Part shown: in pieces, positions 26,508-42,406 of the stretch | Numbering within the stretch: the stretch's first letter is position 1 | How the letters are laid out: each line of letters begins with the position of its first letter | DNA from: Spirochaetales bacterium | GTDB taxonomy: Bacteria > Spirochaetota > Spirochaetia > JABEVK01 | Assembly (NCBI GenBank): GCA_037142615.1 | Contig: JBAXAI010000006.1 | Location: forward strand, 64,001 to 128,000 | Direction of reading: 5' to 3' | DNA length: 64,000 bases | Notes under the pieces: model-generated | Database searches by the model: none | Seen by the model: the letters and a program-made list of their open reading frames with translations, nothing else | Told to the model about the DNA's origin: nothing | Position numbers and translations under genes: made by a program

Positions 26508-26582
26508 AACTTTGCTCCTCTTTACGGACGCCTTGCGGAGTTCCCGCTTGAAGTCTAGCACAGACTCTAGTTATGTCAACCT

Positions 26583-26605: not shown

Positions 26606-26636
26606 GTGACGTGGCAGATTGTCCGGGCGACGTGAC

Positions 26637-28703
26637 TCAGCCCAGCAGGTCACCTGCCTTCAGGAAGGTTTCGAGGTCGGCCGACGCGGCCCGGGTAAAA
26701 ACGGGAATGCGGCCCACGGGCGCCAACACGGTGTAGGTTCGCCCCGGGCCAGTTGCCCCGCCGAACCGCTTGCCCGTCCCGAGTTGAACCCAGTCACCTG
26801 CGGGCAGGTACACCTGGCGACTGCGGTAGCCTTCGCGGACTACCGGCGCGACGAGCAGGTCGGCGCCGAGCATGAACTGGTCTTTGATCGTCCAGCACAC
26901 GTCGTCGCCCTCAAACTCCCAAAACAGAGGGCGCATCACGGCGATTCCGGTGGCGGCGTTTTCAGCGATCAGGCGCCTTCGATACGGTGCCAGCGCCTGG
27001 AACAATTGGCCAAACCGAGCCAGGTGGTCCAGCGTTTCGTCGTCGCTGTCGAACTGCCAGTTGTCGCCGGGCCGGTTGCCTTCGTGCGAGCGCATCAGCA
27101 CCGTGAACGCCGACAACTCCACCCACCGCTGGAACAACTCGCGGGTGCGCTTCATGCCAAACAGCGTGGTGTAACCGCCCATGTCGCTGTGATGCAGGCC
27201 CATGCCGCACACGGCCAGCGACAACGCGGCGGGAATCACCGAGATCAGGCCGTCGTCCTCGGACCAGTCGACGTTCTGGTCGCCGGCCCACGCCATGCCG
27301 CACCACTTTTGGCTCCCGGTGTACCCGGCGCGCATAAAGTACAGAATCTCGTCGCGCGCGCCCACCTCGTCGATGGCTTCGCGGTTGATGCGCGCCCAGA
27401 TGGCCGGCCATTCGTTGTGCGCCAGCTCGGCAGGGGTGCCGTCGTGCAGCACCACGTCGGTGGGCAGGTACTCGCCAAAGTCGGCCATCCACCCGGCCAG
27501 GCCAAACGCGATCAGGTTGGTCTGGATCACCTTTTTGTACCAAACGCAGGCGGCCGGGAGCGTAAAGTCGACAATACCAGCGTCGAACTCGCCAAAATCG
27601 ACAAAATAGTCCTCGCCCTTCCGGTTCTTCACCAGGTAGCCCTTGGCCTGCGCCTCTTGGCACAGCGGTTTGTCTTTCACCACGTAGGGGTTGATGTAGC
27701 CGAGGAACCGAACACCCCGCTGGCGGAGCTTGGGCAGGGCGGCGTCGAGGCCGGGGTAGTGCTTTTCGTCCCATTGCCAGTTCCACATCAGGCGCTTGCC
27801 AAAGCTGGTGATCCGTTGGCCCTGCCAGTCCTGGGCCCAAATGCCCACGACCGGGACCTGGTGCGTTTGCGCGCGTTCCAGCTTGTCGAGGCACACCTGC
27901 GTGCCCCCCTGAATGCCCAGAATCACCCCGTCTTGGGTCCATTCCGGGAGAACAGGCTGGCGGCCCAACAGGTGCGACAGCGATTGGGCACAGGCCTTGA
28001 GGGTGGCCCCGGTTCCCAGCGTCAGGCGCGGGGGAATCTCGTGGAACTCGAGCGCGTGACGGTCGGCCTTCGAAAAGTCGAACACCGCGTAGGCTCGGCT
28101 GTCGGCGTGCAGCCAGTACCGTGCCGACGACACAAACGTGGGCTGGGGGAAGAACGTCCACCAGTAGTCGCCGCCGGCTTTGTCGAGCACGTCGGCCTTC
28201 CACGTGACCCAAGTGCTCTTGTTGCGGCCCACGCCTTGCTCGCTGGTCCACAGGGGAAACCGCCGGCCACGCAGATCGAAGTGCGAGAACTGCTCGCCAC
28301 AACCGTAAATATGCTCGTCGGCACCGGCGTCGAGCTCGAGCCACAACCGGTTCCACCGGGCGTTGGTGCAGCGGGGCAAGACTTCGAGCCGTTGGTGCAC
28401 GGCTTTCCGGTCGGCCACTTCCTGCGGCCGAAACTCCAGGCGCAAGGTGCAGTCGGCAGCGTCGGCGGCAACGCGCGGGAACAGCTCGAGCAGGCCCGTT
28501 GCTGCGGTGAACCGCCAGCCCTCGAGTGGGACCTTCTGAAACAGGTGATCCTGCACCTGAAAGTTGCCCCGGTACATCTGAATGTCGTCCTGGCCTTGGC
28601 CCAAAGCGGCGCAAGGTCGTTGCACACTGTGGCGCAACACAAGCCGACCCTCGAACGACAGTTCGAAGCCTTCGGCGGTTTCGGCGAAATGCAGACCCCT
28701 CAT
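26637..28703 (-). CDS. yihQ: Sulfoquinovosidase (GH31, YihQ-type)
   Basis: WAQDW, SFGKRLMWNW and GGYTTLF carry the Q/R/W/Y sulfonate-binding residues; nucleophile WMADFGEYLP; WAGDQNVDWS. Confidence 0.9.
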   Translation of the reverse strand: MRGLHFAETAEGFELSFEGRLVLRHSVQRPCAALGQGQDDIQMYRGNFQVQDHLFQKVPLEGWRFTAATGLLELFPRVAADAADCTLRLEFRPQEVADRKAVHQRLEVLPRCTNARWNRLWLELDAGADEHIYGCGEQFSHFDLRGRRFPLWTSEQGVGRNKSTWVTWKADVLDKAGGDYWWTFFPQPTFVSSARYWLHADSRAYAVFDFSKADRHALEFHEIPPRLTLGTGATLKACAQSLSHLLGRQPVLPEWTQDGVILGIQGGTQVCLDKLERAQTHQVPVVGIWAQDWQGQRITSFGKRLMWNWQWDEKHYPGLDAALPKLRQRGVRFLGYINPYVVKDKPLCQEAQAKGYLVKNRKGEDYFVDFGEFDAGIVDFTLPAACVWYKKVIQTNLIAFGLAGWMADFGEYLPTDVVLHDGTPAELAHNEWPAIWARINREAIDEVGARDEILYFMRAGYTGSQKWCGMAWAGDQNVDWSEDDGLISVIPAALSLAVCGMGLHHSDMGGYTTLFGMKRTRELFQRWVELSAFTVLMRSHEGNRPGDNWQFDSDDETLDHLARFGQLFQALAPYRRRLIAENAATGIAVMRPLFWEFEGDDVCWTIKDQFMLGADLLVAPVVREGYRSRQVYLPAGDWVQLGTGKRFGGATGPGRTYTVLAPVGRIPVFTRAASADLETFLKAGDLLG

Positions 28704-28705
28704 GG

Positions 28706-29548
28706 TTAGCCCTTGACCCCGCCGGAAGTCAGCCCGGCGATGATTTTGTTGTGCATGAACACATAAACAGCCACGGTGGGCAAAATGGACAACATGATGG
28801 CGGCAAACATCGGACCGTAGTCCGTCAGGAACTGGCTCTGAAAGAACCGGATGCCGAGCTGCACGGTACGGGTCGTCTCGCTCGAGGTGAACAGCATGGC
28901 CAGGATGAACTCATTCCAGGCGTAGATGAAGCAGAAGGTGCCCGCCGTGGCCAAGCCCGACTGGGCGAGCGGTAAAATCACCTTCCAAAAGCGGTCGATG
29001 AAGTTGCAGCCGTCGATGGTGGCCGCCTCTTCCAGTTCCTTGGGAATGGCCTTCATAAACGACGTGAGCAAAAAGATCGACACCGGGATGTTGACCGCCG
29101 AATACACCAAAATGAGGGCCAGCAGATTGTTGTACAGCCCGATGCGGTTGACCAGGATGAAGTACGGCACCAGGAACGAAATGATGGGGATCAGCACTCC
29201 GGCCGTCAGCATCACGTACAGAAAGTCCTTGCCTGGAAACTTTTCACGCGCAAAGACAAACGACGCCAAGGCCGCCACCACGAGGTTGAGCAGCACAGTA
29301 AAGGCGGCCACGAGGATGGAGTTCATGAACAGAACCGGCAGGTTGGCCACCGAAAGCGCGTTCGCGTAGTTGACGAACTGCGGAACCGCCGGCAGCGTGA
29401 ACCCGCTGGTCTCGATCTCGAAGCTGGTCTTGAGCGATGAAACCAACAACCACAGGAAGGGCATCAGCGTCACGATCAAGAAGAACAGCAGGATGGCCCA
29501 CTTGAGCAAAAAGCCGGGGTAGTCGCGAACGGTCAGTTTTGTGGTCAT
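28706..29548 (-). CDS. Carbohydrate ABC transporter permease (SQ/SQ-glycerol uptake by context)
   Basis: IPKELEEAATIDG, WNEF, GLTSGGVKG. Confidence 0.93.
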   Translation of the reverse strand: MTTKLTVRDYPGFLLKWAILLFFLIVTLMPFLWLLVSSLKTSFEIETSGFTLPAVPQFVNYANALSVANLPVLFMNSILVAAFTVLLNLVVAALASFVFAREKFPGKDFLYVMLTAGVLIPIISFLVPYFILVNRIGLYNNLLALILVYSAVNIPVSIFLLTSFMKAIPKELEEAATIDGCNFIDRFWKVILPLAQSGLATAGTFCFIYAWNEFILAMLFTSSETTRTVQLGIRFFQSQFLTDYGPMFAAIMLSILPTVAVYVFMHNKIIAGLTSGGVKG

Positions 29549-29557
29549 GGTAGGTTC

Positions 29558-30448
29558 CTATTGGGAGGCGTCGGACATCGGGTCTTTGCTGCCGAAAATG
29601 GCGCGCAGCAGCACAATCATGCCGGTACCGAAGGCAATGAGGATGAGCGCAACCGCGCCCGCCCGCCCGTATTGAAGCTCGTCCATCTGCTGAAACAAAA
29701 CGATACCCATGGTGGTGGTGGAATACGCCGGGCCCCCTCCGGTCATCAGAAAGGTCGCCTCAAAGTGGCGGATTCCATAGGCCATGGCCAGCGTCGCCGA
29801 CGTGACCAGCGTTCCCCGGAGCATGGGAATCGTGATGGCGAACTCCTGTTGCGTGCGCGTGGCCCCGTCGAGCTCGGCGGCCTCGTAGAGTTCGATGGGA
29901 ATGTTCGTGGCGGCGGCCATCAGAATGATCATGAAGTAACCGATGTACAGCACCGACTGGGCAATGATGGCGGCCAAAGCCGTGGCGGGAACTCCCAGCC
30001 AGTGGTAGTGGGCCAAATCGGGAAAAATCGGCGCCAGGAGCGCGTTGAGCAGGCCGTGATTGGGGTTGTACACCTGCGTCCACATCATCGCGATGGCCAC
30101 CGCCGAAATCACGTTCGGCAAAAAGAAGATCGTGCGGAAAGCTCCCCAGCCCTTGGGTTTGCGGTTGAGCAGGATGGCGACCAACAGAGCCAGCGGCACC
30201 TGGATGAACCCCGAGGCCAGCGCCCAGATCAGGTTGTTTCCCAGGGCCATCTGGAACGTGTCGTCGGTAAACAGCCGCTCGAAGTTCCTCAGCCCGATGA
30301 ACTCCATGTCGCCGATGCCTTTCCACTTCATCACGCTGGTTTGCGCGGTGAAGAACAAGGGAAAGACGAAGAACAGGACAAACAGGATCAGCACAGGCAG
30401 AAGAAACAGCACGATGTAGAGTCCGTTCCGGTTGCGGCTTCGGGCCAT
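29558..30448 (-). CDS. Carbohydrate ABC transporter permease
   Basis: FIGLRNF, IFFLPNVIS, ELYEAAELDGA. Confidence 0.93.
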   Translation of the reverse strand: MARSRNRNGLYIVLFLLPVLILFVLFFVFPLFFTAQTSVMKWKGIGDMEFIGLRNFERLFTDDTFQMALGNNLIWALASGFIQVPLALLVAILLNRKPKGWGAFRTIFFLPNVISAVAIAMMWTQVYNPNHGLLNALLAPIFPDLAHYHWLGVPATALAAIIAQSVLYIGYFMIILMAAATNIPIELYEAAELDGATRTQQEFAITIPMLRGTLVTSATLAMAYGIRHFEATFLMTGGGPAYSTTTMGIVLFQQMDELQYGRAGAVALILIAFGTGMIVLLRAIFGSKDPMSDASQ

Positions 30449-30461
30449 AGAGTCCTCCTGA

Positions 30462-30496
30462 AGAAAAAAACGGACCGGTCACACGCCTGACCGGTC
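30462..30496 (-). terminator. Intercistronic hairpin/terminator after the binding-protein gene
   Basis: GACCGGTCA-6 nt-TGACCGGTC stem followed by a T-run on the minus strand. Confidence 0.65.
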
Positions 30497-30514
30497 ACAA
30501 GCTGCGATGAAACT

Positions 30515-31771
30515 CTAGTCTTCGAGCTTCTTGGCGATGGCCTTCAGCATGTCGGCTTCGGTGGTTTCACCGGCAACGTACTTGCTGATCAGCTGGCCAA
30601 ACTCTGCCACGGCGGCGGGTCCGAGCGCCACTTCGAGGTTGGGAACCGTGAAGGAGGCCTTCTGGACCAGGTCCATAAAGCGCTGCATGCCCTTTTCGAC
30701 GGGAGTGGCGGCCTGGAAGGTAAAGGGAACCGTGAACATCGCACCGGAAGCCAGCGAAATCTTCTTCACGCTGTCGGGTGACGTCAGCACCTTGAGGAAG
30801 GTGATGATGGCGGCGCGACGGGCGGGATCCTTGGTTTCGCCAGCGGCGAGCATGGCCTGCAGGAACATGGGAACCGAGTTCTTGTAGGTGCCGAACGACG
30901 GCAGGTAGTCAAACGCCAGGTTGGAGAACACGGCGGGGCCGTCCTTCTCGGAGGGAGCCAAGCGCCACGAACCGTTGGAGTAGATGGCCGACTCTTCCTT
31001 GAGGAAGTGACCGTTGGCAATCGCCGGAGCGGCACCCACCGAGTCAACGTTGGCGTAGCTGAACATCTTCTTCAGGTCCTTGAGCGATTCGACGAACACC
31101 GGGTCGGTGATGGGCTTCGACCAGACATTTTCGCCGCCACGGGTGGCCGCAATCTGGGTGAACCACAGCATGGTGATGTAGGCGTTGGTGCCACCGGTGT
31201 TCTGGGCGATGGGGCTGATGCCCAGCGCCTTGAGCTTGTCGGCAGCGGCCCAGAACTCAGCCGAGGTGGCGGGAACCTTGGTGACGCCGGCCTTCTTGAG
31301 CAGCGCCATGTTGTACCAGACGGGGGTGACGCCCACTTCGAAGGGGAGCGACTTGAGCTGGCCCTTGATGGTGGCCTGCTTGATCGAGGCTGCGGGGAAC
31401 GACTTGGCCCAAGTACCGGTCAGGTCCTTGCTGAAGTCCATCACCAACGGAGATTTGTAGAACTCCGAGGTAGCAGGGTTGAGCTTGAACGTGAAAATGT
31501 CGCCCGGGCTGGTACCGGCGGCCAACGAGGTGCGGATCTTCTGCTCATAGGCGTCGTAGTTGGGTTGGGCCTCAATATCAACACGGATCTTGCCCACATT
31601 GGCGGCATTGAACGCGTCGACAATCTCCTTGACGGGTGCGGCTTTGGCGTCGCCACCGACCCAGATACAGGGCCAGGTGAGCACAATTTCCTGGGCCGCC
31701 GCCTGGGCACCCACGAGCGTCAAGACAACGCCAAGCGTCGTCAGAAACTTCAGAACTTTGCTGGTTCGCAT
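30515..31771 (-). CDS. Sugar ABC transporter substrate-binding protein
   Basis: Signal peptide ending AQAAA, WYNMALLKKAGV, SBP_bac_1 pattern. Confidence 0.9.
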   Translation of the reverse strand: MRTSKVLKFLTTLGVVLTLVGAQAAAQEIVLTWPCIWVGGDAKAAPVKEIVDAFNAANVGKIRVDIEAQPNYDAYEQKIRTSLAAGTSPGDIFTFKLNPATSEFYKSPLVMDFSKDLTGTWAKSFPAASIKQATIKGQLKSLPFEVGVTPVWYNMALLKKAGVTKVPATSAEFWAAADKLKALGISPIAQNTGGTNAYITMLWFTQIAATRGGENVWSKPITDPVFVESLKDLKKMFSYANVDSVGAAPAIANGHFLKEESAIYSNGSWRLAPSEKDGPAVFSNLAFDYLPSFGTYKNSVPMFLQAMLAAGETKDPARRAAIITFLKVLTSPDSVKKISLASGAMFTVPFTFQAATPVEKGMQRFMDLVQKASFTVPNLEVALGPAAVAEFGQLISKYVAGETTEADMLKAIAKKLED

Positions 31772-31817
31772 ACTCTTCTCTCCTCTTTTGACTTTTTCCC
31801 TTGCTAGGGATTTAATT

Positions 31818-32555
31818 TCAAACAACCAACATCACGATTCCCGTGACAAACAGCATCGAAAACACGATCTTGGCGAACAGGTCGGAATCGACCCGCCGAT
31901 GCGCAAACTCCCCGGCGATGATGCCGGCAATCAGGAAGGGTGACATCAGGCCCAGTTCGCCCAGCGACTCGGTGGTAAACATGCCCTGCAGGTAAAACTG
32001 CGTCATGAGCACGGAATTAAGTGTCACCCACAAAAGGACTAACGTCGAGCGGAAGTTGCCTTTGTCGGGTAGCGTGCGGCTGGCGTACAGCACCACCAAA
32101 GGCCCTCCCGTGGCAAACGCGCCGTGCACAATGCCGCCCAGGAACAGCAGAACCCAGTAAAACGGCGTCGGCAGGCCCTTCGAGGCCCCCTCGCGGGCGG
32201 GCAAGAACCGCTTCCACAGCTGGTAGCCGGCGCTGAACAAAATGAACACGGCCAAGGCCTTGGTCAGCAGCACCTTGTCGAGCACCTGGTAAGCCCACAT
32301 GCCCAGCGGCAACCCCAGCCCGACGAAGAACAGGATGATCCCGAACTCCTTCCAGACGATCTTGCGGAACGCAGTGATCACAAAATACAGGGCCAGCACC
32401 CAGGCCAGCACCGCCAGCAGGAACTTGGCCTTGCCCAACCCCAGCAGCATGCTGACAAAGGGCATGGCGAGCACGGTACACCCGAAGCCGGTGATGGCTT
32501 CCAGTCCGTGGGTAACGAGCACCACGAACCCGGTGACCAGCCAGGTCAGAGTCAT
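31818..32555 (-). CDS. tauE: TauE/SafE family sulfite/organosulfonate exporter
   Basis: EAITGFGC, GGIVHGAFATGGP; about 8 TM helices in two repeats. Confidence 0.9.
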   Translation of the reverse strand: MTLTWLVTGFVVLVTHGLEAITGFGCTVLAMPFVSMLLGLGKAKFLLAVLAWVLALYFVITAFRKIVWKEFGIILFFVGLGLPLGMWAYQVLDKVLLTKALAVFILFSAGYQLWKRFLPAREGASKGLPTPFYWVLLFLGGIVHGAFATGGPLVVLYASRTLPDKGNFRSTLVLLWVTLNSVLMTQFYLQGMFTTESLGELGLMSPFLIAGIIAGEFAHRRVDSDLFAKIVFSMLFVTGIVMLVV

Positions 32556-33721
32556 GTGCGCTTGGCTCCCACCAATTGACGTACGGCTTCGACGCCCATC
32601 GGGGGCACGTTGTTGAGCAGCTTGAAGTCGGTTTGGCACTTGTCGAACAGCTCGGCGAGGCGCGCGTCGGTGAGCACCCCCGCCCCGGCGATATCGGCGA
32701 AACGGCACGGCAGACCGGTGTGCACTTTGAGGCGCAGCAGCTCATCGGCCAGGCGTTTCACCGGCTCGGCGGCTCGAGGCCACAGCTGGTTCGCAACGGC
32801 CTCGAGCTTGGGGCGCACCCTGGGGTCGACCGCGTTGAACGCAAACACATCCTCGGTGAAAAACGCGCAGGCCGCGCCGTGCGGCACGTGCCATTCCTCG
32901 CTGAGAATGAACGACAGCGCGTGGATGGCGGCCGTCCCGGTGTTGTTGAAGGCCACGCCCGCAGCGCACGCGGCGGCCAGCAGTTCGGCGGTTCCCTCGC
33001 TCCTGCCAGCTTTGCGGGCGTCGTAGGCCGGTTGGAAAAAGCGCAGCAGGTTCACCAGCGCGTCGGTCGCCAGCAGGTCACTGACCGGGGTGGCATTTTT
33101 GTTCCACAGGGTTTCGAGGGCGTGCGTCATGGCATCGTAGGCGGTGCTGGCCAGCAAAGCCGGAGGAATGTCGGCCACCAGCGCCGCTACCAGCAGCGCC
33201 AAGTCGGCCTGCAGCAACGGGCTGCCCAGCGAGTACTTGCGGCCGCTGCGGGCGGTGTACACGCCGAACTTGGTCACCTCGGCGCCGGTGACACAGGTGG
33301 TGGGGACCAGCAACAGTTTGGCGCCCCGGCGTTCCAGTTTGCGGGTGGCGTGGGGTCCCAGGTAGTCGTCGAGGTCGCCTTCGTGGCCGGCCATGGCACA
33401 CACGGCCTTGGCGGAATCCAGCGCGCTGCCGCCACCGATGCCGAGCACCAGGTCGGGGGCAAACACGCGGGCGTCGGCCACCATGGCCATGATGTCGGCG
33501 GTTTGCGGGTTGGGCACAATGCGGTCGTCCACGCGCATGCGGGCCGGTTCCACAAACTCCGCCAGCACCTTGTCGAGCAGCGGGAACGGCCTGGGATCTT
33601 TGATGAGGAGCACCCGGGCATCAGTCCGGTTGGCCAGAAAGGCCGTCACCTGGCGCAGGGTAGCGGCGTCGAGGTGGTCGAGCGCCTGAACTTTGGTGGA
33701 ACTCTGAACGCTGAAAAGCAT
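32552..33721 (-). CDS. Iron-containing alcohol dehydrogenase (candidate sulfoaldehyde reductase)
   Basis: GGGSALDSAK, PTTCVTGAEVT, DAMTHALE, AIHALS, PHG metal ligands. Confidence 0.88.
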   Translation of the reverse strand: MLFSVQSSTKVQALDHLDAATLRQVTAFLANRTDARVLLIKDPRPFPLLDKVLAEFVEPARMRVDDRIVPNPQTADIMAMVADARVFAPDLVLGIGGGSALDSAKAVCAMAGHEGDLDDYLGPHATRKLERRGAKLLLVPTTCVTGAEVTKFGVYTARSGRKYSLGSPLLQADLALLVAALVADIPPALLASTAYDAMTHALETLWNKNATPVSDLLATDALVNLLRFFQPAYDARKAGRSEGTAELLAAACAAGVAFNNTGTAAIHALSFILSEEWHVPHGAACAFFTEDVFAFNAVDPRVRPKLEAVANQLWPRAAEPVKRLADELLRLKVHTGLPCRFADIAGAGVLTDARLAELFDKCQTDFKLLNNVPPMGVEAVRQLVGAKRT

Positions 33722-33730
33722 GCCGTCCCC

Positions 33731-34234: not shown

Positions 34235-34261
34235 GGTGTTCTTCCTTTTGGCGAGAGCAGT

Positions 34262-35197: not shown

Positions 35198-35210
35198 GGG
35201 TCTGCTCTCC

Positions 35211-36029
35211 TTACGCCAGGGCCGCGAGGGCCTGTTGAACTTGCTCGGCGGTGATGGGCATGTTGTGGCTGGTCACCAGGCCTTCACAGAACGAGCAGCC
35301 CTTGCCCTTGATGGTGTCCATCACGATCATGCTCGGTTGCCCGCGGTGAGCTTTGGCTTCCACCACCGCCCGCTCGAGGGCTTCGAAGTTGTGCCCGTCG
35401 ATCTGCACGGCATTCCAGCCAAAAGCCACCCATTTGTCGAGCAACGCGCCTTGGTCCATGATTTCACTCGTCATGCCGTCAATCTGCATCTTGTTGAAGT
35501 CGGTGAACGCGATCAAGTTGTCCAACTTGTAGTGGGCGGCCATCATCGCCGCCTCCCAAACCAGGCCCTCATCGCTCTCGCCGTCGCCGATGATGCAGTA
35601 CGTGCGGGCTCCCTTGCCGTCAAGACGCTGTCCGAGCGCAATGCCGCAGGCGGCCGAGATGCCCTGCCCCAGCGAGCCGGTCGACATGTCGATACCGGGG
35701 GTTTTGGTGCGGTCACAATGCGATGGAAGATTGGTGCCGCCCTTGTTGAGCGTGTGCAGCCAGTCCTTGGGGAAAAAGCCCTTCTGGGCCAGCATGGCGT
35801 ACAGCGCGGGGCCGGCGTGCCCCTTCGACAGCACGAACCGGTCGCGATGCGGCAGGTTGGGTTGCTTGGCGTCAAAACGCAGATGGCGATGGTAGACCAC
35901 CGCAAGCGCGTCGACGACCGACATGGACCCGCCAATATGGCCGACACCCAGATGGCCGATCTCGTCGATGGTCAGCCGCCGGACTTCCTTGGCAAGCTCG
36001 ACCAGTTCCTGCAGTTCCTTCGGTTCCAT
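35211..36029 (-). CDS. Split transketolase, N-terminal TPP-binding subunit (SqwG-like)
   Basis: GHIGGSMS, LSKGH, STGSLGQG, GDGESDEG...N TPP motif, TIKGKG. Confidence 0.93.
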   Translation of the reverse strand: MEPKELQELVELAKEVRRLTIDEIGHLGVGHIGGSMSVVDALAVVYHRHLRFDAKQPNLPHRDRFVLSKGHAGPALYAMLAQKGFFPKDWLHTLNKGGTNLPSHCDRTKTPGIDMSTGSLGQGISAACGIALGQRLDGKGARTYCIIGDGESDEGLVWEAAMMAAHYKLDNLIAFTDFNKMQIDGMTSEIMDQGALLDKWVAFGWNAVQIDGHNFEALERAVVEAKAHRGQPSMIVMDTIKGKGCSFCEGLVTSHNMPITAEQVQQALAALA

Positions 36030-36079
36030 GCTCAAAACCCGCCCCCTTGCCCCACTGTCACGTCAGGCCCTCCCTTATA

Positions 36080-36106
36080 TTAAAATCGTTATCGACTTAT
36101 TGTCAA
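36080..36106 (-). promoter_or_regulatory. Promoter of the transketolase operon with operator in the spacer
   Basis: Minus-strand TTGACA (36101-36106) overlapping TTAAAATCGTTATCGACTTATT. The same motif occurs at 37321. Confidence 0.6.
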
Positions 36107-36153
36107 CGAAATCTTTCCCTGTTACAGTAAGGCGGGATGCAAGGAGTCCAATC

Positions 36154-37326
36154 ATGGCTTTCGGCACGGTGATCGAACAGCGCAAGACCGCTAAACGCAA
36201 CCACGTGATCGGTCTTTTCCGCGAAAAGACGCACCTGTCGAAAGCCGAGGTGCGCCAGCTGTCGGGGTACTCGATGGAAACCCTGATCGGGATTTTCCGC
36301 AACCTGGAAGACAGCGGGCTGCTTTGCCCCAGCGAGGTGGCCGCGGCGCGCCTCAAGGGTCGCCCATCCGAGCGTTACCGGCTCAACCCGCTGGTCGGGC
36401 TGTACCTCGGGGTCACATTTACCAGCGCGCGTCTGCACCTGATGCTGGTCAACCTTTCGCTGGAACGGCTGAGCTTCCGGTCGGTCGACGTTCCCGATGG
36501 CGCGGCACAGGACGAGTTCGAGCGGTTCTTTACCGCCGAACTGGCGCGCTTCGCGGCCGACAACCAACACCATTTGCCGGCCATCCGCAAGATCGCGTTG
36601 GCCCTTCCCGGCCAGGTGGACCCGGCAACCGGCGTGCTGAGGCACTACGGCCTGATGCCCTCCTGGCGGAACCTGGACCTGGCGTCGGTGGTGACCCGCG
36701 TGTTCGGCGCCGTGCCGCTGGTGGTACGCCACAATATCGCCGGGTACGCGCGCGAGGTGCTTTCCACCCCGGCTTTGCGCGATTTCGACGGCCGCATCCT
36801 GTACGTGACCGCGCGCTCGGGCACCGCGCATGCCCTCCTGCAACAGGGAAAAATCGTGCTCGACAACGGCGAAATGGGGCACCTGCACGTCAGTCAGTCC
36901 AACCTGGTGTGCGAATGTGGGCGCACCGGCTGCCTCGACACCATTTTTTCGCTCAAGGCCATCGGCAAACTGCTGCCCGGACAGACGCTGGGCGACTTTG
37001 GCCACCACCTGCGCAACCTGGCCGTGGCAGCTCAAGCCGAAGCGCTGGCGCCCCTGGAGACGGCCTACCAGGCCTTTTCGGAAGCCCTGCTCGACCTCTG
37101 TGCTGCCACCTCGCCCGACCTGGTGGTGCTGTCGGGCGAGCTGCTGGCCGTGCTGCCCGAACCCGTGGCGTGGATCGAACGGTGGCTGGGCCAGCTGTAC
37201 AACCCTGCCCAGCCGCCGGTCTGGCTGCCCGAGGACTTTCTGTACCTTCCTTCGGGGACCGAAGCCGCGGCGTTGGGCCTCTGCAGCGCGCTCATGGACG
37301 AGGATCTGCAGGGCGGGACATTTTAA
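36154..37326 (+). CDS. ROK family transcriptional regulator
   Basis: N-terminal HTH ending KGRP, GEMGH, CECGRTGCL. AAGGAG RBS. Confidence 0.87.
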   Translation: MAFGTVIEQRKTAKRNHVIGLFREKTHLSKAEVRQLSGYSMETLIGIFRNLEDSGLLCPSEVAAARLKGRPSERYRLNPLVGLYLGVTFTSARLHLMLVNLSLERLSFRSVDVPDGAAQDEFERFFTAELARFAADNQHHLPAIRKIALALPGQVDPATGVLRHYGLMPSWRNLDLASVVTRVFGAVPLVVRHNIAGYAREVLSTPALRDFDGRILYVTARSGTAHALLQQGKIVLDNGEMGHLHVSQSNLVCECGRTGCLDTIFSLKAIGKLLPGQTLGDFGHHLRNLAVAAQAEALAPLETAYQAFSEALLDLCAATSPDLVVLSGELLAVLPEPVAWIERWLGQLYNPAQPPVWLPEDFLYLPSGTEAAALGLCSALMDEDLQGGTF

Positions 37327-37351
37327 TCGTTGTCGATTTTAACCCTTGACA
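37321..37351 (+). promoter_or_regulatory. Operator plus -35 box upstream of the DUF4867 gene
   Basis: TTTTAATCGTTGTCGATTTTAA pseudo-palindrome followed 3 bp later by TTGACA. Confidence 0.6.
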
Positions 37352-37381
37352 GCCGTGTTGGAACGGGTTGAAGATGCCCGC

Positions 37382-38029
37382 ATGAAATATTTTTCTTGTG
37401 AGGACGAGGCCTTCCGGCCCTACGGCCGAGTGCTCTCCGGGTTACCGACCAGCGGTCTGGTCGATTGGATGCAGGCCCAGGTCAAGATTGCCGAGGGCAC
37501 CCAGTACCAGCGGAGCGTCGGTGCCCTCGAGGACCTGCCAGGCCCCGAGCAACTGACCTGGAAGCAGTGGGCGTCGAAGGTGTTTTACGGCTCGTTCCCC
37601 GCGCAGGTGGGCTGGGTGGCCGGGCACAGCCGCAAACTCAACGCGCTGGAGTACCACAAAGCCAGCGAGATCACCGTGGCCACCACCGACCTGGTGCTGT
37701 TCCTGGGGCGCCTGCAGGACCTCCGCGACCACCGCACCTATGATTCCAGCCTTTTGGAAGGGTTCCGCGTTCCGGCAGGTACCGCAATTGAGATTTATTC
37801 GACCACGCTGCACTTTGCGCCCGCCACCCTGAGCCCCGCGGGGTTTCAGGCGGTGATCATCCTTCCCCTGGGGACCAACGCCCCGCTCGAAAAGGTGAAC
37901 ACCCAGGCCGCCGGCGAGGAAGCCCTGCTGTGGATGGCCAACAAGTGGCTTATCGCTTGTCAGGACTCGATTCCCGCCAAGCGCGGGGCCAAGGTGGGTA
38001 TCTCGTCCAACCTCGAATTGCCCGGCTGA
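37382..38029 (+). CDS. DUF4867 family cupin-like protein (SftX/SqvB-like, sulfoglycolysis-associated)
   Basis: FRPYGRVL, LNALEYHKASEI, EIYSTTLHFAP, LPLGTN, NKWLIA. Confidence 0.85.
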   Translation: MKYFSCEDEAFRPYGRVLSGLPTSGLVDWMQAQVKIAEGTQYQRSVGALEDLPGPEQLTWKQWASKVFYGSFPAQVGWVAGHSRKLNALEYHKASEITVATTDLVLFLGRLQDLRDHRTYDSSLLEGFRVPAGTAIEIYSTTLHFAPATLSPAGFQAVIILPLGTNAPLEKVNTQAAGEEALLWMANKWLIACQDSIPAKRGAKVGISSNLELPG

Positions 38030-39150
38030 TCGGCCGGCAGGTCCAAAAAGAACGCTCGCACCGCGATGGCGGCCCCTCCTAAATAGGGAGCGGCCTCGTC
38101 GAGCGCCGAATGGCGGATCACCGCGGCGGCCTGCGGGTTGGCGGTGAGTTCCACCAATTGGTCGACCAGCAGACCCAGGACCAGCGGGTGGTTGAGAAAG
38201 CTGCCGTAAAGCACCACCCAGTAGGGGTCGAGCAGCTGGATGGCGTGGTCGATGGCCAGCGCCAAATGCCCCAGCGTCGTCTGGACCAGCTCCTTCACCC
38301 GGGCATCCCCGTCGGCCAGCGCCTGCAGGATCAACGCCGGTGACGCCAGCCCCGTAGCGGCCACCAACGCGGCGGGTGAGGCCAAGGTCTCCAGGCACCC
38401 GGTGCGGCCGCAGCGGCAGACCAGCTTGTTGCCCGGCACCAGCGTGTGACCGATCTCGCCCGAGCGGTCGTGCGACCCGGTGTCGATGCGGTGCTCCAGA
38501 ATCAACGCCGAACCGATGCCCGGTCCGTACTTGAGGAACAGCTGGCGGCCGTCGCCGGGGTTGCCGCCAAAGTCCATTTCGGCCAAGGCCAACGCGCGCA
38601 CGTTATTTTCCAGGCACACGGGCACACCCAATGCGGCTTCCAGAAGCGCCACCACCGGCACGGGCTGGTCCCACAGGCCGTAGTCGTGCAAGGTGCGCCC
38701 CGTTTGCCGGTCCACGCTTCCCACCACCACCACCCCGACCCCCACAAGCTGTGCCACCGCGAGGTTGTGCGAGGCCGCCAGTTGCAGCAGTGAGGTGGCG
38801 ACCCGCGCCAGGATTTGCTCCGGGGTTTCTCCGTCCAGCGGTGGCAGGCGGCTGGAAGCCAGCGGCACCCCATCGAGGCGGCACAGCGCCGTAGTGAGTC
38901 CCTCGGTCTCGATGGACGCGGCCCCGACAAAAGATCGACTGTAGTCGAGGTCGACGAGAATCTTGCGGCGGCCGGCGCGGTTTTCGACCTCCTCGCCGCG
39001 TTCAACCAGCAGGCCGGCGTCGAGCATCTTGGCCGTCAGAATGGTCACCGCCGCCGGGGTGAGCCCAATGCGCGCCGCGATGTCTTTGCGCGACAAGGGG
39101 CCGCTCTTGCGCAGCACCCGCAGCACGGCGATCTGACTCAGTAGTCGCAG
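37960..39150 (-). CDS. ROK family transcriptional regulator (start uncertain, 39126-39231)
   Basis: GPLSRKDIAARIGLTPAAVT HTH, AGRR, ENNVRALALAE, GEIGH, CRCGRTGCLE. Confidence 0.88.
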   Translation of the reverse strand: MRLLSQIAVLRVLRKSGPLSRKDIAARIGLTPAAVTILTAKMLDAGLLVERGEEVENRAGRRKILVDLDYSRSFVGAASIETEGLTTALCRLDGVPLASSRLPPLDGETPEQILARVATSLLQLAASHNLAVAQLVGVGVVVVGSVDRQTGRTLHDYGLWDQPVPVVALLEAALGVPVCLENNVRALALAEMDFGGNPGDGRQLFLKYGPGIGSALILEHRIDTGSHDRSGEIGHTLVPGNKLVCRCGRTGCLETLASPAALVAATGLASPALILQALADGDARVKELVQTTLGHLALAIDHAIQLLDPYWVVLYGSFLNHPLVLGLLVDQLVELTANPQAAAVIRHSALDEAAPYLGGAAIAVRAFFLDLPADQPGNSRLDEIPTLAPRLAGIES

Positions 39151-40478
39151 ACTTCCATCCCCAACAGCGAACCCAGCACGCGCAGCTCGGCCACCACGTC
39201 GTCGTAGATCACCACGAAGTGCGGTTCCCAACCGTCCTTGACGGCCTTGGTGATCAACTGCTCGGCGTTCATGCGCGGCTGGAACACCAGCGAGGTGCCG
39301 CTGAACTGCTGCGGCGCGTCGAGCACGCTGCCCGGCGACACCAGAAACCGGAAGCTGCCGTCGGGTTTGCGGCCCACGCGGAACACCGTGGCCTTTTCGG
39401 CAGGCTTGCAGCCAAACTCCATCGTCGGTCCGATTTTACGGTTGGGGTGCACGCCCATGGCAGCGCCGCTGTCGGCGCGCGCCAGCGAGCATGCCGCCGT
39501 TCCGCAGTGCCAAAACGTCACGGTGTTGGCGGCTTCGTCGAGCGAGACGGGGTCGCCGAAAAACACCGCGGCGTGCGACAGCTCGATGCCGATGTACATC
39601 GAAATGGCGCCGTACAGGTCGGCTTCGCAGGCCGCCGCCACGAGGTTGTCGTTGAGCATGCCCAGCACGCCGCACACCGGCGTTCCATAGTCGACGAAGT
39701 AGTCGGGCCAGCAACGTGAGGCCAGGGCTTGCACATTCTTGGACACGACAAAGTCCTTGTAGGCCTTGTACAGGCGCACGTAGGCCTCGACGTTTTCGGC
39801 GGGCAGTTTGTCCAGGCCGACCATTTTGGCGCGGGACTCTTCCCACTCGACGGTCAGGTCGGCGGCGGCGTAGCTTTTGGCCTTGGTCATCAGCTCGCGC
39901 GCCTCCACCGACTCGAGGTTGGCACCGAAGGCGCGCACCACATCGGCGTCGAGCGCGCGGCCAAAGCCGAAACCCTGCGGCGTGTGCCCGATCGAAGCCA
40001 CGGTGAGCCCGCGCAGCTGCTTTTTGACGCGGGCGGCACCGATCACGGCCTTGAGGGTGTTGCGCACCTTGTCTTCGCCCGGTCCGCCAAACACGTACTC
40101 GAAGTTGGGGCGGTCCAGGTGGTGCATCAGGTTACCGGCCGAAAACGCCCCGGTGAGCGAGTTCAGCCGCAACCGGCCGCCGTCGATCACCGGTTCTCGC
40201 AACGTCCACAACACCAGCGGGCAGGCGCAGCTTTTCACCACCTCGGTGGCGAAGGCCGAGTTGGCGAAGGTGTTGTTTTGCAGCACCACCAGGTCGGCGT
40301 TCAGCGTGTCGAGGTAGGCCTTGAGGTCGTCGAGCTTGAGCAAGGGACCAGCGGGAACCACGCAGTCGGGGCTCAGCGACTTGAGCAGTTCCACCGAGCG
40401 GTGAAACTGCTCGTGGGCGCTCTCCATGTGAAACGTGGGCACCCCGATGGGCACGTAAGCGAGCTGAAAGGGTTTCAT
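39138..40478 (-). CDS. sqvD: L-fucose/L-arabinose isomerase family protein (SQ isomerase SqvD/SftI-type)
   Basis: PIGVPTF, GRLRLNSLTG, RCWPDYF, CEADLYGA, FWHCG, GWEPHFV. Cotranscribed with the SF transaldolase. Confidence 0.8.
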   Translation of the reverse strand: MKPFQLAYVPIGVPTFHMESAHEQFHRSVELLKSLSPDCVVPAGPLLKLDDLKAYLDTLNADLVVLQNNTFANSAFATEVVKSCACPLVLWTLREPVIDGGRLRLNSLTGAFSAGNLMHHLDRPNFEYVFGGPGEDKVRNTLKAVIGAARVKKQLRGLTVASIGHTPQGFGFGRALDADVVRAFGANLESVEARELMTKAKSYAAADLTVEWEESRAKMVGLDKLPAENVEAYVRLYKAYKDFVVSKNVQALASRCWPDYFVDYGTPVCGVLGMLNDNLVAAACEADLYGAISMYIGIELSHAAVFFGDPVSLDEAANTVTFWHCGTAACSLARADSGAAMGVHPNRKIGPTMEFGCKPAEKATVFRVGRKPDGSFRFLVSPGSVLDAPQQFSGTSLVFQPRMNAEQLITKAVKDGWEPHFVVIYDDVVAELRVLGSLLGMEVCDY

Positions 40479-40488
40479 AGGGGTCTCC

Positions 40489-41565
40489 TTAACCGACCAG
40501 GTATTTTCGCAGAATCAGCACGAGTTTGTCGTACCCGGCGTAAAAACCGCGCAGCGTGGCCAAGGTGGCCCCGTAGGTATCAAACTCGGGGATGGTCAGG
40601 CCGTCGGGCTCGTACGCCTGCCGGAACTCGGGGAACTTGTCGAGCAGCGCGGCCAAAAGCGCGGGCGGGACTTCGTCGTTCATCGTGGGCACAATGGCGA
40701 TGTCGGACGCGTTGTAGTTCAGCTGCCACTGGTAGGGAATCGTGTGCAGCATGTCGCCGCCGATGAGTTGGGCCAAGTGGTGGCGGTTGCGGTACGCCGC
40801 ACCCAGCAGTTTGGTGGTAAACCGGCGTTCCTGGTAAATTCCGTAGGCGCGTTTGATCACCGCCACGCCGCACCAGTCGAGCGCGGCCGGGTCGATCACC
40901 GTGCCTTTTTTGGCCGCGACGTCCTTGAGGTAGTCGTCGGTGCGGCCGCCCATGATAGTGCACACCGGGTTGATTCCCGCGGTGGTGAGGCCTTCGCTCT
41001 TGCGGCGCGCCAACCCGCGCTCCACCGCTTCGGCGACAGAGAGAGCCTGGGCCACCGTGAAACTCACCGTGGCGTTGATGCTGAAGCCGCGGTAGGTGAC
41101 TTCCTCGATGGCTGCGATGCCGGCGCTGGTGGCGGGCAGCTTGATCTGGATATTGGGGGCGAGCGTGCCAAAGTGCAGCGCCTGTTCCACCATCAGCGCG
41201 GTGCTGCGATGGAACTTGGTGTTCGTCTGGATCGAGATGCGTCCGTAGCCCTTGGCCGGGTCAAAAATCGGGAGCAGGGTGCGGGCCCCGTCGACGGCCA
41301 GGTGCTCAATCATCTTCCACGCCAGCTCGTCCTCGGTGGCGTGCGGAAACGCCTTCACCAGCTCGCGGATCACCGGGTCGTACTTGGGCAGTTCCTTTTC
41401 GAGCACCGCCTGCACGATCAGCGGGTTGGTGGTGGCACCCACCGCGCCGTTTTCGAGGGCGTACGCCAGCTCGGTTTGTGAACAGGAATCCAGCCAGTAT
41501 TGCGTGGGCGTGGTGGCCGCCATCTCATGGAGCTTGCTGCGATACGTCATGGTGCCCGGTTTCAC
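40489..41565 (-). CDS. Transaldolase family protein, long form
   Basis: WLDS, GATTNP, IKLPAT (Schiff-base Lys), INATVSF. Confidence 0.88.
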   Translation of the reverse strand: MKPGTMTYRSKLHEMAATTPTQYWLDSCSQTELAYALENGAVGATTNPLIVQAVLEKELPKYDPVIRELVKAFPHATEDELAWKMIEHLAVDGARTLLPIFDPAKGYGRISIQTNTKFHRSTALMVEQALHFGTLAPNIQIKLPATSAGIAAIEEVTYRGFSINATVSFTVAQALSVAEAVERGLARRKSEGLTTAGINPVCTIMGGRTDDYLKDVAAKKGTVIDPAALDWCGVAVIKRAYGIYQERRFTTKLLGAAYRNRHHLAQLIGGDMLHTIPYQWQLNYNASDIAIVPTMNDEVPPALLAALLDKFPEFRQAYEPDGLTIPEFDTYGATLATLRGFYAGYDKLVLILRKYLVG

Positions 41566-42245
41566 GGTGCCACCTTGGTCTCGTCCCAGGCTTTGCGGAA
41601 CACCCCCAACCCATGATCGGTGAACGGATGGTGCATCGCGTCCTGGTACACCTGCAGGCCGCAGGTGACGATGTCGGCTCCGGCGATGGCCGCTTCGGCG
41701 ATCTGGCGTCCGTTGCGCAACGCCGCGACGATGATTTCGGTTTTGAAATGGTAGTTACGGTACATGGTGACGATGTCGCGCACGTAGTCGAGCCCCTCAT
41801 CACCGCTGTTTTCCTTCCAGCCCACGAAGGGCGACACAAACAGCGCGCCGATCTTAGCGATGGGCAAGGCCTGCGACGGCGAAAAGACAAGCGTGACGTT
41901 GGTGCGGATGCCCTCTTTTTCCAGTTGGCGGGCGGCGATGATGCCTTGTTCGGTGCAGGGAATCTTGATCACAAAATGGGGCGACAGGGCGGCGATCTTG
42001 CGGCCTTCGGGAACCATTTCGGCGGCCTTTTCGAGGTGCGGGTTGATCTCGACCGAGATGGGAAACTGCTTCAGACCGTCGAGCTTGAGCGAGGCCGCCC
42101 AGTCGCCCAGCTCACGGATTACCGTCAGGAACGGCTTGCCGCTGGCCTGAATGTGGCGGGGGTTGGTCGTCACGCCGTCGATTCCCCAACTCTCGTAGGC
42201 ATACCGGATCTCTTCAATTTTGGCGCTGTCGAGAAAATACTTCAT
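41562..42245 (-). CDS. sqvA: 6-deoxy-6-sulfofructose transaldolase (SqvA/SftT-type)
   Basis: MKYFLDSA, GVTTNPRH, FPISVEINPHL, SPFVGWKENSG, AALRNG; closely matches Bacillus SqvA as recalled, including the TNPR and GWK features absent from housekeeping TalC/FSA. Confidence 0.85.
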   Translation of the reverse strand: MKYFLDSAKIEEIRYAYESWGIDGVTTNPRHIQASGKPFLTVIRELGDWAASLKLDGLKQFPISVEINPHLEKAAEMVPEGRKIAALSPHFVIKIPCTEQGIIAARQLEKEGIRTNVTLVFSPSQALPIAKIGALFVSPFVGWKENSGDEGLDYVRDIVTMYRNYHFKTEIIVAALRNGRQIAEAAIAGADIVTCGLQVYQDAMHHPFTDHGLGVFRKAWDETKVAP

Positions 42246-42259
42246 CGGGCCCTCCAGGG

Positions 42260-42313
42260 TATTTGATTAAATCATTTAATCAAATAATAGAGGGGCCTCG
42301 AAGGTTCTGTCAA
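42260..42313 (-). promoter_or_regulatory. Promoter of the transaldolase operon with a perfect palindromic operator
   Basis: TATTTGATTAAA-TCA-TTTAATCAAATA (42260-42286) overlaps the -10 of TTGACA-18-TATTAT. Confidence 0.8.
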
Positions 42314-42406
42314 GAAGATAACTGCGTGAGAGGTCCCTCAGACTCCTGAGGTCCGTTCTCACAAGCGCGTCTTTCTGCTATATTCGACTCCCCAGTGAGA
42401 ACCCAT

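Follow-up and report, generated by a model that had tools for sequence, protein, structure and literature searches.

Gene Content of the Island

The window, i.e., the whole 64,000-nucleotide stretch analyzed here (positions 64,001 to 128,000 of contig JBAXAI010000006.1 from a Spirochaetales bacterium), carries between positions 26637 and 42313 a gene island that, judging from its sequence, probably serves the catabolism of sulfoquinovose (SQ) in a freshwater bacterium of the Spirochaetia and encodes the already described bifurcated pathway, with a sulfo-transketolase (sulfo-TK) and a sulfo-transaldolase (sulfo-TAL) branch. Since the window is GC-rich (GC content 0.62), lists of its open reading frames (ORFs) are crowded; Pfam and NCBIfam scans of the island ORFs pointed to one clear gene per stretch. 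All genes that an initial annotation, made from the letters and ORF translations, had listed in this interval were recovered among the ORFs and by both scans, and its end coordinate, 42313, corresponds to the −35 box of the operon B promoter-like site. The spirochaete host that it had considered probable was confirmed (class Spirochaetia). No gene for an ATPase of the ATP-binding cassette (ABC) type was found within the island. Below, L-numbers denote matched loci or metagenome contigs, G000 the host genome and G001 to G004 genomes of the same genus. Operon A extends from the split transketolase to the glycosidase and operon B from the short transaldolase to the second ROK gene, both on the minus strand:

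26637..28703, minus strand: YihQ-type GH31 sulfoquinovosidase (NF007746, 921.1 bits, cut-off 553)
28706..29548, minus strand: ABC importer permease (BPD_transp_1; partners 53–62% identical in spirochaete sulfo-TK loci)
29558..30448, minus strand: ABC importer permease (BPD_transp_1; partners 50–62% identical in spirochaete sulfo-TK loci)
30473..30496, minus strand: GC-rich hairpin with T-run between the binding-protein and permease genes (9-pair stem, 6 GC pairs, tail CGTTTTTTTC)
30515..31825, minus strand: extracellular solute-binding protein (SBP_bac_8 and SBP_bac_1)
31818..32555, minus strand: TauE/SafE-family exporter, SqwE-like (Pfam TauE, 67.2 bits; start revised)
32552..33721, minus strand: iron-type alcohol dehydrogenase (Fe-ADH and ADH_Fe_C)
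33731..34234, minus strand: RpiB/LacAB-family isomerase (PF02502, 131.7 bits)
34262..35197, minus strand: split transketolase, C-terminal subunit, SqwH-like (Transket_pyr and Transketolase_C; 274.5 bits to 6yaj)
35211..36035, minus strand: split transketolase, thiamine-diphosphate-binding subunit, SqwG-like (Transketolase_N, 186.1 bits)
36154..37326, plus strand: ROK-family protein (ROK domain; Mlc/NagC models matched from model position 11)
37346..38029, plus strand: DUF4867 protein, SqvB/SftX type (PF16161, 213 bits)
37960..39231, minus strand: ROK-family regulator with MarR-type helix-turn-helix (HTH) region (ROK, 126.4 bits; start at 39231, 39126 or 39117)
39138..40478, minus strand: FucI-like sulfoquinovose isomerase, SqvD/SftI type, 446 aa, the only one in the island
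40489..41565, minus strand: long transaldolase-family protein, Faecalicatena “F2” type, 358 aa (TAL_FSA, 129.2 bits)
41562..42245, minus strand: sulfofructose transaldolase, SqvA/SftT type, 227 aa, ortholog of BmSF-TAL

With the TauE start placed at ATG 32555, the genes of operon A are separated by −8 to 66 bp. Metagenome contig L120, an independent source, matches window positions 37666–45430 at 99.97% identity, and the junction between the isomerase and long transaldolase genes is spanned by contigs of two further sequencing runs (X3 record 16, X8 record 32). It thus follows that the layout is not an assembly artefact. Near-identical DNA was present in freshwater or lake-water metagenome runs from 12 studies.

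Operon A Encodes a Glycosidase, an Importer and a Probable Transketolase Branch

The glycosidase scored 796.2 bits against E. coli YihQ (5aed). The KRxMW, MADFGE and GGYTT stretches were conserved in the alignment, and the two proteins were identical at R301, W304, D405 and Y508 (positions counted from the alignment). We take the arginine, tryptophan and tyrosine to be sulfonate-binding and the two aspartates to be catalytic in YihQ, and have read the alignment accordingly. By both the curated cut-off and these residues, the protein belongs to the YihQ family.

Partners of the solute-binding protein, 40–44% identical, adjoin sulfoquinovosidase genes in spirochaete loci; the protein itself had no sequence match to solved sulfoquinovosyl-glycerol binding proteins at E ≤ 1e-5. 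A hairpin with a T-run between binding-protein and permease genes is the usual device for producing more of the former than of the latter, and we infer that the hairpin at 30473–30496 acts as a partial terminator. The TauE start codon at 32555 overlaps the stop of the iron-type alcohol dehydrogenase gene, and spirochaete sulfo-TK loci hold exporter partners that are 45–49% identical. The alcohol dehydrogenase occupies the SqwF position of sulfo-TK clusters and is a candidate SqwF-like sulfoacetaldehyde reductase; its NCBIfam match to the SarD model was far under the cut-off, and among solved structures it retrieved generic relatives only. The RpiB-like isomerase is 62–85% identical to the gene adjoining the split transketolase in spirochaete loci. 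As a PF02502 protein encoded beside SqwGH, it is a candidate SqwI-like sulfoerythrose isomerase, an activity that is, according to the available text of PMC9594981, unproven even for the type enzyme.

Sulfofructose (SF) transketolases are described as carrying R-A-F-D-R instead of R-S-F-H-R, with Ala36 and Asp108 located in the C-terminal subunit (text of PMC11659671). When the C-terminal half from the island was aligned with 6yaj, itself a split transketolase, R9 was kept, Ala36 replaced Ser and Asp108 replaced His; the protein thus agrees with the RAFDR signature at R9, A36 and D108 (the Phe and the last Arg lay outside the residue-by-residue check). Of the named relatives of the N-terminal half, the best (55–64% identical) belong mostly to spirochaete loci that carry a sulfo-TK gene set. 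The genome has housekeeping copies elsewhere, namely, one full-length transketolase (452 bits, contig C16) and two transaldolases, one classical (301 bits, C15) and one short (165 bits, C11), from which it follows that the island copies are extra and dedicated.

In one freshwater metatranscriptome, contigs identical to the sulfoquinovosidase, binding-protein, TauE, RpiB-like and transketolase C-half genes were found, the longest (1502 bases) lying on the binding-protein gene. This lends weak support to expression of operon A in nature. The highest word depth among these contigs was seen for the binding-protein and TauE genes, a measure that cannot rank genes. The same metatranscriptome, available as contigs only, contained none over 39525–42400 or 25000–26742 and is uninformative on expression there.

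Operon B and the ROK/DUF4867 Gene Pair

The 227-amino-acid transaldolase scored 333.4 bits against BmSF-TAL of Bacillus megaterium (8bc3), while the best ordinary transaldolase reached 163.4 bits. It keeps the catalytic Asp, Glu and Lys (in FLDSA, SVEIN and VIKIP) as well as the SPFVGW Trp and AALRN; a sulfonate-orienting Trp-Ala-Arg motif is reported for SF transaldolases (text of PMC11659671). Similarity to BmSF-TAL and the catalytic and sulfonate residues agree in placing it among these enzymes. Its gene overlaps that of the long transaldolase-family protein by 4 bp.

A search with the short transaldolase retrieved 3678 relatives at E ≤ 1e-60, the best of which (65–73% identity) were from Fusobacteriaceae, Bacillota, Bacillus, Enterococcus gilvus and Caproiciproducens, with one at 89%. 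A maximum-likelihood tree was built from 39 hand-picked sequences, namely, 17 database matches, 18 locus translations and 4 others (two weaker matches of the same class, the window protein and, as an outgroup, the housekeeping copy of the genome); this tree and that of the long protein were midpoint-rooted for drawing only. The window protein and two close relatives formed one group (support 100/99), sister (90/84) to a Clostridia sequence together with six sequences from sulfo-TAL-only loci of the phylum. The short transaldolases of Firmicutes hybrid clusters (L030, L039 and Caproiciproducens) formed a 100/100 clade of their own elsewhere in the tree.

The FucI-like isomerase is 78% identical to its counterpart in the same-genus island of G001 and 56–59% identical to those in hybrid clusters L137 and L052. 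Its match to PF02952 was weak (20.5 bits, under the cut-off). According to the available text of PMC9594981, the families are defined as DUF4867 for SqvB, FucI-like PF02952-type for SqvD, PF02502 for SqwI and PF00465 for SqwF. Since the isomerase also scores under the cut-off of the SftI model NF048012, we call it SftI-like on the grounds of its family and context and place it outside the equivalog. As this sole FucI-like isomerase sits in operon B, operon A depends on it. The DUF4867 protein is a putative SqvB/SftX-type sulfoquinovose mutarotase or ring opener, a role assigned after PMC9594981 and PMC11659671 as far as their available texts describe it.

Both ROK genes of the initial annotation are present, and both are better read as regulators: the proteins match NagC/Mlc regulator models over their HTH regions, which makes repressors more likely than kinases. 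The start of the plus-strand gene was revised, with ATG 36154, behind AGGAG, being most likely.

A promoter scan returned five promoter-like sites versus 2.4 ± 1.5 in shuffled sequences. The control sites within the island are:

36077..36128, both strands: divergent promoter-like sites between the transketolase operon (minus strand, TTGACA-18-TAATAT, 10/12, 36106–36077) and the ROK/DUF4867 pair (plus strand, TTGTCA-17-TACAGT, 9/12, 36100–36128)
42263..42283: perfect palindrome of 21 bp, a candidate operator of operon B located between its −10 box and ribosome-binding site
42284..42313, minus strand: promoter-like site of operon B (TTGACA-18-TATTAT, 11/12)

The palindrome occurs once in the window, and 100 shuffles gave no matches at up to three mismatches. 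It is identical letter for letter in L122, which has the same gene order and is about 89% identical in DNA sequence here. Because the promoter of the transketolase operon has no copy of the palindrome, the two operons may be under separate control.

Proposed Pathway

The initial annotation had proposed that one glycosidase, importer, isomerase and exporter stand together with an SF-type transketolase and transaldolase, and at the gene level this is borne out (Pfam, NCBIfam, the 8bc3 score and A36/D108). In the proposed scheme, the ABC importer would take up SQ or SQ-glycerol, the YihQ-type glycosidase would free SQ, the DUF4867 protein (SqvB) might assist its ring opening or mutarotation, and the single FucI-like isomerase would convert SQ to SF. 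In the first branch, the split transketolase would transfer C1–C2 of SF onto glyceraldehyde-3-phosphate, yielding xylulose-5-phosphate and sulfoerythrose; the RpiB-like isomerase would then turn sulfoerythrose into sulfoerythrulose, a second transketolase cut would give sulfoacetaldehyde, and the iron-type alcohol dehydrogenase would reduce the latter to isethionate for export through TauE. In the second branch, the short transaldolase would move C1–C3 of SF onto glyceraldehyde-3-phosphate, giving fructose-6-phosphate and sulfolactaldehyde, whose onward fate is not unambiguously encoded. A genome search for phosphoketolase (PF09364) gave only a weak match to the island transketolase; since no phosphoketolase was found, xylulose-5-phosphate would have to be returned by ordinary pentose-phosphate enzymes.

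The two branches would probably provide redox and carbon flexibility, as isethionate formation uses NADH and the C3 branch need not. The choice between them matters beyond the cell: the sulfonate excreted, C2 isethionate or C3 sulfolactate and 2,3-dihydroxypropane-1-sulfonate (DHPS), determines both the secondary degraders that take over and the amount of sulfide formed.

The initial annotation had also suggested a combined transketolase/transaldolase cycle on sulfosugars without a separate branch, in which, for example, a sulfo-heptulose would be built from sulfoerythrose. Apart from co-localisation and the unexplained second transaldolase-family gene, nothing was found in its support. Pfam and NCBIfam scans detected no further enzyme for such intermediates in the island; sulfoerythrulose is without the C4 hydroxyl needed by a transaldolase donor (our reasoning from established chemistry), and two end branches account for the growth results reported with the same set of genes (text of PMC11659671). 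We regard such a cycle as very improbable.

A gene that could be considered for the second branch lies just outside 26637–42313, 129 bp downstream of the glycosidase gene as measured to its revised ATG:

25053..26507, minus strand: aldehyde dehydrogenase (Pfam Aldedh, 480.7 bits; ATG 26507 with GAGGAG upstream)
26552..26579, minus strand: promoter-like site of the aldehyde dehydrogenase gene (TTGACA-16-TAGACT, 10/12, with TG)

The promoter-like site suggests a separate transcription unit. The protein received no specific assignment from NCBIfam or the PDB, its solved relatives being generic, and orthologs of 75% identity were found in G001, where a contig end cuts the gene, and, in the same neighbourhood, in G002. 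It is a weak candidate for sulfolactaldehyde oxidation, for which it may have been co-opted.

The Long Transaldolase-Family Protein

The partner of the short transaldolase has just 69.1 bits to its best solved relative and belongs to a family with more than 7800 members at E ≤ 1e-20, in which D26, Q113, K142, R208 and R259 are invariant or nearly so. Gln113 aligns with the catalytic Glu96 of TalB (14/14 family members; 6/6 of those aligned with TalB), and a classical TalB-type transaldolase was ruled out by this residue. Fructose-6-phosphate aldolases combine Gln at the Glu position with a Tyr where TalB has Phe178. The long protein has the Gln; at the Phe178 position, Val or Met is found, according to the aligner used, and never Tyr, and this type was likewise rejected. 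R208 stands at the TalB Arg181 position, where the SF enzyme has Trp, and Ala at the TalB Ser226 position is common to the long protein and the SF enzyme. A long, Gln-type transaldolase-like protein is a recurrent partner of sulfo-transketolase clusters.

The presence of two transaldolase-family genes could be accounted for by a plain sulfo-TK pathway, with both proteins being pentose-phosphate helpers that exchange sedoheptulose-7-phosphate and fructose-6-phosphate and so bring xylulose-5-phosphate back to glyceraldehyde-3-phosphate. The transketolase route takes two glyceraldehyde-3-phosphate per SF and, with no phosphoketolase found, requires a high pentose-phosphate flux; moreover, the long protein keeps Arg at the TalB Arg181 position, and it accompanies transketolase sets while being absent from 14 of 14 sulfo-TAL-only loci. 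However, the short transaldolase is orthologous to the solved SF enzyme (333 versus 163 bits), with Trp replacing TalB Arg181, and classical and short housekeeping transaldolases are already present elsewhere in the genome. A helper role for both proteins is therefore unlikely, though it could apply to the long protein taken by itself.

Three roles for the long protein in the SQ island are possible: a phosphosugar transaldolase that regenerates the acceptor, a second SF transaldolase, or a fructose-6-phosphate aldolase, the last having been proposed for the F2 transaldolase of Faecalicatena (text of PMC11659671). No dihydroxyacetone kinase gene (Dak1, PF02733) was found in the 96.7% complete genome, which speaks against, without excluding, release of free dihydroxyacetone and hence the aldolase role. 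The long protein was found with transketolase sets in L030, L039, L052, L123 and L137 and in none of the 14 sulfo-TAL-only loci of the phylum, which favours a tie to the transketolase branch.

In a 35-row tree, long proteins from SQ clusters occupied three separate, well-supported places, with members from other contexts between them: the window protein with L121/L122 and L123/P0004 (100/97), L137 with L052 (100/99), and L030 with L039 (100/100). Both trees argue, short of proof, that the spirochaete and Firmicutes layouts arose separately.

Outside SQ clusters, 12 of 36 metagenome loci with relatives of the long protein hold IolB-, IolD- or IolG-like genes, and 7 of the 36 hold an aldehyde dehydrogenase resembling the neighbour of a paralog in the host genome; many of the remaining contigs are 1–3 kb long. 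This paralog (G000:C2:27658-28764) is 53% identical to the long protein and is encoded next to aldehyde dehydrogenase, GntR regulator, IolG- and IolD-like genes (G000:C2:27658-30296 = L119:7659-10297). L126:586-7784 shows the order permease, IolB, IolD, IolE-like, IolG, aldehyde dehydrogenase, transaldolase-like, and similar clusters are present at L133:1457-11944, L128:11-11925 and L141:153-4926; neither a PfkB kinase nor a class II aldolase was detected among the ORFs scanned in these four.

From these gene neighbourhoods, whose aldehyde dehydrogenases are IolA-like, the family may catalyze an undescribed step in inositol clusters in place of IolC and IolJ. As a lead, we propose that a dihydroxyacetone unit would be moved from unphosphorylated 5-dehydro-2-deoxy-gluconate with release of malonic semialdehyde, for which the stereochemistry is, by our reasoning, suitable. 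No report of a transaldolase in inositol catabolism was found in the literature searched, which did not extend to subscription journals. SF is a close analogue of 5-dehydro-2-deoxy-gluconate, because it has the same D-threo ketose head and an anionic tail. Taken jointly, one may tentatively suppose that the long protein is no pentose-phosphate helper, that its inositol-type clade was recruited at least three times into clusters of the sulfo-transketolase type, and that it acts as a second SF transaldolase of independent evolutionary origin in a bifurcated layout that arose by convergence; we hold this combination to be rather doubtful. If the long protein is indeed a second SF transaldolase and the layouts were assembled independently, the bifurcated arrangement would be a convergent solution.

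Long-family relatives were also seen directly behind aldehyde:ferredoxin oxidoreductase genes (L134:6497-10921, L130:293-3703). In L134, a gene for a FucI-like isomerase (23.5% identity to that of the island) additionally precedes the relative, and this isomerase/transaldolase/aldehyde-oxidiser layout recalls sulfo-TAL logic, presumably for another sugar.

Distribution in Relatives and the Sister Species

A search with the transketolase N-half, run on a single genome for each species, gave 166 relatives, of which 80 loci were kept and searched with 16 island proteins by tblastn (coverage ≥ 0.5). The best transketolase relatives were mostly Spirochaetota-labelled, with some from Anaerolineae, Bacteroidales and Clostridia. 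A transaldolase gene lay near the transketolase in 3 of the 80 loci, all Firmicutes-labelled (both kinds in L030 and L039, the long kind only in L052), and in none of the 35 spirochaete-labelled loci; an RpiB-like gene at ≥ 60% identity was present in 19 of these 35 by manual count.

The search also returned split-transketolase relatives, 55–61% identical, beyond the sulfo-TK phyla named in the available texts of reviews. They are Chloroflexota-labelled (L003, L010, L023, L031, L040, L041, L044, L048–L050), Bacteroidales-labelled (L005, L007) and Gemmatimonadetes-labelled (L019). The Chloroflexota-labelled loci have an RpiB-like partner that is 71–79% identical; since the nearby GH31 protein is just 24–27% identical to the sulfoquinovosidase, their substrate may differ.

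Forty relatives (4 of the same genus, 7 of the same family and 29 of the same class) yielded no ortholog of the short transaldolase, the best match being 45% identical. A further 400 genomes of the phylum yielded 14 orthologs at 55–66% identity and two more matches at 49%. Up to 20 kb was fetched around each of the 14 sulfo-TAL loci, four of which lie on contigs shorter than 9 kb. Many have a YihQ-type glycosidase, an isomerase and/or TauE nearby, and in none of the 14 was a transketolase, an RpiB-like gene or a long transaldolase seen near the short one. Both pure routes therefore occur in the phylum, and, among the genomes searched, they stand side by side only in this one.

G001 (90% complete) carries the island on a single contig, its gene order preserved from the glycosidase to the isomerase, with proteins that are 56–85% identical and DNA identity of 71.7% over window positions 26782–38712 and 38876–40478. 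The isomerase start codon (40478) marks the exact end of the homology. Beyond this point, the window has the two transaldolase genes, the promoter-like site and the 21-bp palindrome, whereas G001 has a divergent alpha/beta-hydrolase gene followed by a two-component system; neither transaldolase had a match in the G001 genome. G002–G004 are missing the island altogether. L122 has the same arrangement as the window, with transaldolases of 94% and 91% protein identity. On this comparison, the transketolase part is likely the older, lineage-typical core and the transaldolase pair an add-on of this species group. Two congeneric genomes whose islands differ by just the transaldolase pair offer a clean natural comparison for the purpose of the second branch.

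GC content at third codon positions (GC3) was 0.80–0.85 for the transaldolase pair and 0.80–0.87 for the island, and composition gave no sign of a recent transfer of the pair. The fact that the sister species G001 manages with the transketolase set alone would fit a situation in which the pair is a non-functional or silent passenger, a transfer remnant beside a working island that is effectively sulfo-TK only. Against this stand two intact genes with conserved catalytic residues, a promoter-like site with a conserved palindrome, a 4-bp overlap such as is seen in co-translated genes, codon GC3 that fits the host, and an arrangement kept in the L122 population at about 89% DNA identity. We thus judge a passenger pair to be improbable.

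Comparison with Published Systems

The initial annotation had treated sulfo-TK and sulfo-TAL as known only as alternatives, a view that is out of date, since the bifurcated pathway has been published (texts of PMC11659671 and PMC13219744). The novelty that it had attached to the layout is lost as well: clusters of Faecalicatena (PMC11659671) and Caproiciproducens (PMC13219744) already show it. Borusak et al. (2024, PMC11659671) described the bifurcated sulfo-TK/sulfo-TAL pathway in Faecalicatena on the basis of growth products together with proteomic and transcriptomic data. According to the available text, the gene set is SQ-induced, and mainly isethionate is made, plus sulfolactaldehyde and sulfolactate. 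The cluster encodes an SQ isomerase, a sulfoacetaldehyde reductase, both transketolase subunits, a sulfoerythrose/sulfoerythrulose isomerase, a DUF4867 protein, an NAD-dependent glycosidase candidate and an ABC transporter; of its transaldolases, F1 resembles the Bacillus enzyme, and F2 has D23/K140/Q111 with Arg replacing the sulfonate Trp. Candidate genes were co-localised in 21 genomes. Under the cluster definition given there, all four enzyme candidates of the island fall within 8.5 kb (window 33731–42245).

As far as that text describes it, the cluster of Faecalicatena sp. DSM22707 resembles the island in its split SF transketolase, whose C-terminal subunit carries Ala36/Asp108, in its RpiB-like isomerase, iron-type alcohol dehydrogenase, FucI-like SQ isomerase, DUF4867 protein and ABC importer, and in having a BmSF-TAL-like transaldolase with a longer family protein directly after it (catalytic Glu to Gln, sulfonate Trp to Arg). 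The host, however, is Bacillota there and Spirochaetota here, and the NAD-dependent glycosidase candidate contrasts with the YihQ-type GH31 enzyme of the island. Unlike the Faecalicatena cluster, the island is without glycerol dehydrogenase and dihydroxyacetone kinase (with no Dak1 found in the genome) and possesses TauE as an exporter as well as a pair of ROK regulators. Here, the two transaldolase genes come first in the isomerase operon, whereas in Faecalicatena they follow the sulfoerythrose isomerase gene. In the trees, both island transaldolases lie outside the clades of the sampled Firmicutes hybrid clusters.

Caproiciproducens strain KNHs216 and rumen metagenome-assembled genomes (MAGs) likewise combine SftI, SftT and SqwGHI, and the products of KNHs216 are isethionate as the main one plus a second unidentified sulfonate (text of PMC13219744). 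YihQ and SqgA are described as missing there, in contrast to the island with its YihQ, and the Caproiciproducens transaldolases group with L030 and L039 (100/100) rather than with the window protein. The same 2026 source reports a bifurcated gene set for Caproiciproducens and sulfo-TK alone for a Sphaerochaetaceae MAG.

Operon A plus the isomerase and DUF4867 makes up the complete sulfo-TK set as given for Clostridium sp. MSTE9 and for Sphaerochaetaceae such as Neosphaerochaeta fermentans in the available texts of PMC9594981, PMC12890257 and PMC13219744; spirochaete-labelled L004, L009, L025 and G001 have the same set in nearly the same order. These clusters differ from the island in lacking a transaldolase (0/35 spirochaete-labelled loci), and most of their isomerases are 22–25% identical to that of the island. 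With the sulfo-TAL system of Bacillus megaterium and Priestia aryabhattai (structures 8bc2–8bc4), the island shares the FucI-like isomerase, DUF4867, YihQ-type glycosidase and TauE, as well as an orthologous short transaldolase (about 70% identity by alignment count); relative to it, the transketolase branch is added, and no dedicated sulfolactaldehyde dehydrogenase or reductase gene could be named.

Spirochaetes are listed among sulfo-TK hosts (text of PMC12890257) and single Spirochaetes genomes among sulfo-TAL hosts (text of PMC7491151), and the main text of PMC11659671 contains no “Spirochaet”, “Sphaerochaeta” or “Treponema”. What the window provides is apparently a new host for a known pathway, the bifurcated route in freshwater Spirochaetia. 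As the hybrid pathway is already in print, the finding is modest; it extends the route from gut Firmicutes to freshwater spirochaetes.

Several observations weigh against reading the island as a bifurcated SQ pathway. The isomerase reached 381.6 bits on NF048012 (SftI), whose cut-off is 700, albeit over the full model length and as its sole NCBIfam match. Contigs of the RNA library may include DNA carry-over and show neither level nor strand. Flux through the C3 branch is minor in the published Firmicutes cases (text of PMC11659671), and none of the island genes stands out as encoding a sulfolactaldehyde reductase or dehydrogenase. The aldehyde dehydrogenase at 25053–26507, missing from 80 of 80 transketolase loci at the thresholds used, was rejected as a core gene of the island; given its own promoter-like site and its ortholog in the island-less G002, it is probably a bystander. 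Finally, because GC3 is equal in the transaldolase pair and the rest of the island, gain of the pair in this lineage and its loss in G001 are indistinguishable.

Flanking Genes

On the plus strand of the window, ThuA-like, GH88-like and aldo/keto reductase genes (22370–25039) separate conserved neighbours from the aldehyde dehydrogenase gene. They have no counterpart at the same spot in G001 or G002, and a homolog of the GH88-like gene is present elsewhere in the G002 stretch.

About 17 kb from the island, the minus strand carries the genes (6871–10201) for a glycyl-radical enzyme, which scores 922 bits on TIGR01774, and for the cognate activase, with genes for a DeoR regulator, a levoglucosan-dehydrogenase-like oxidoreductase, a ROK kinase and an epimerase-like protein as neighbours. 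The enzyme (6871–9273) was considered as a sulfonate lyase and could not be assigned as one, since it scored at about half the cut-offs of the models for sulfopropanediol dehydratase (HpfG, HpsG), hydroxyproline dehydratase (HypD) and choline lyase (CutC) alike. A second glycyl-radical enzyme is encoded just upstream of the window (G000:C6:60649-62553).

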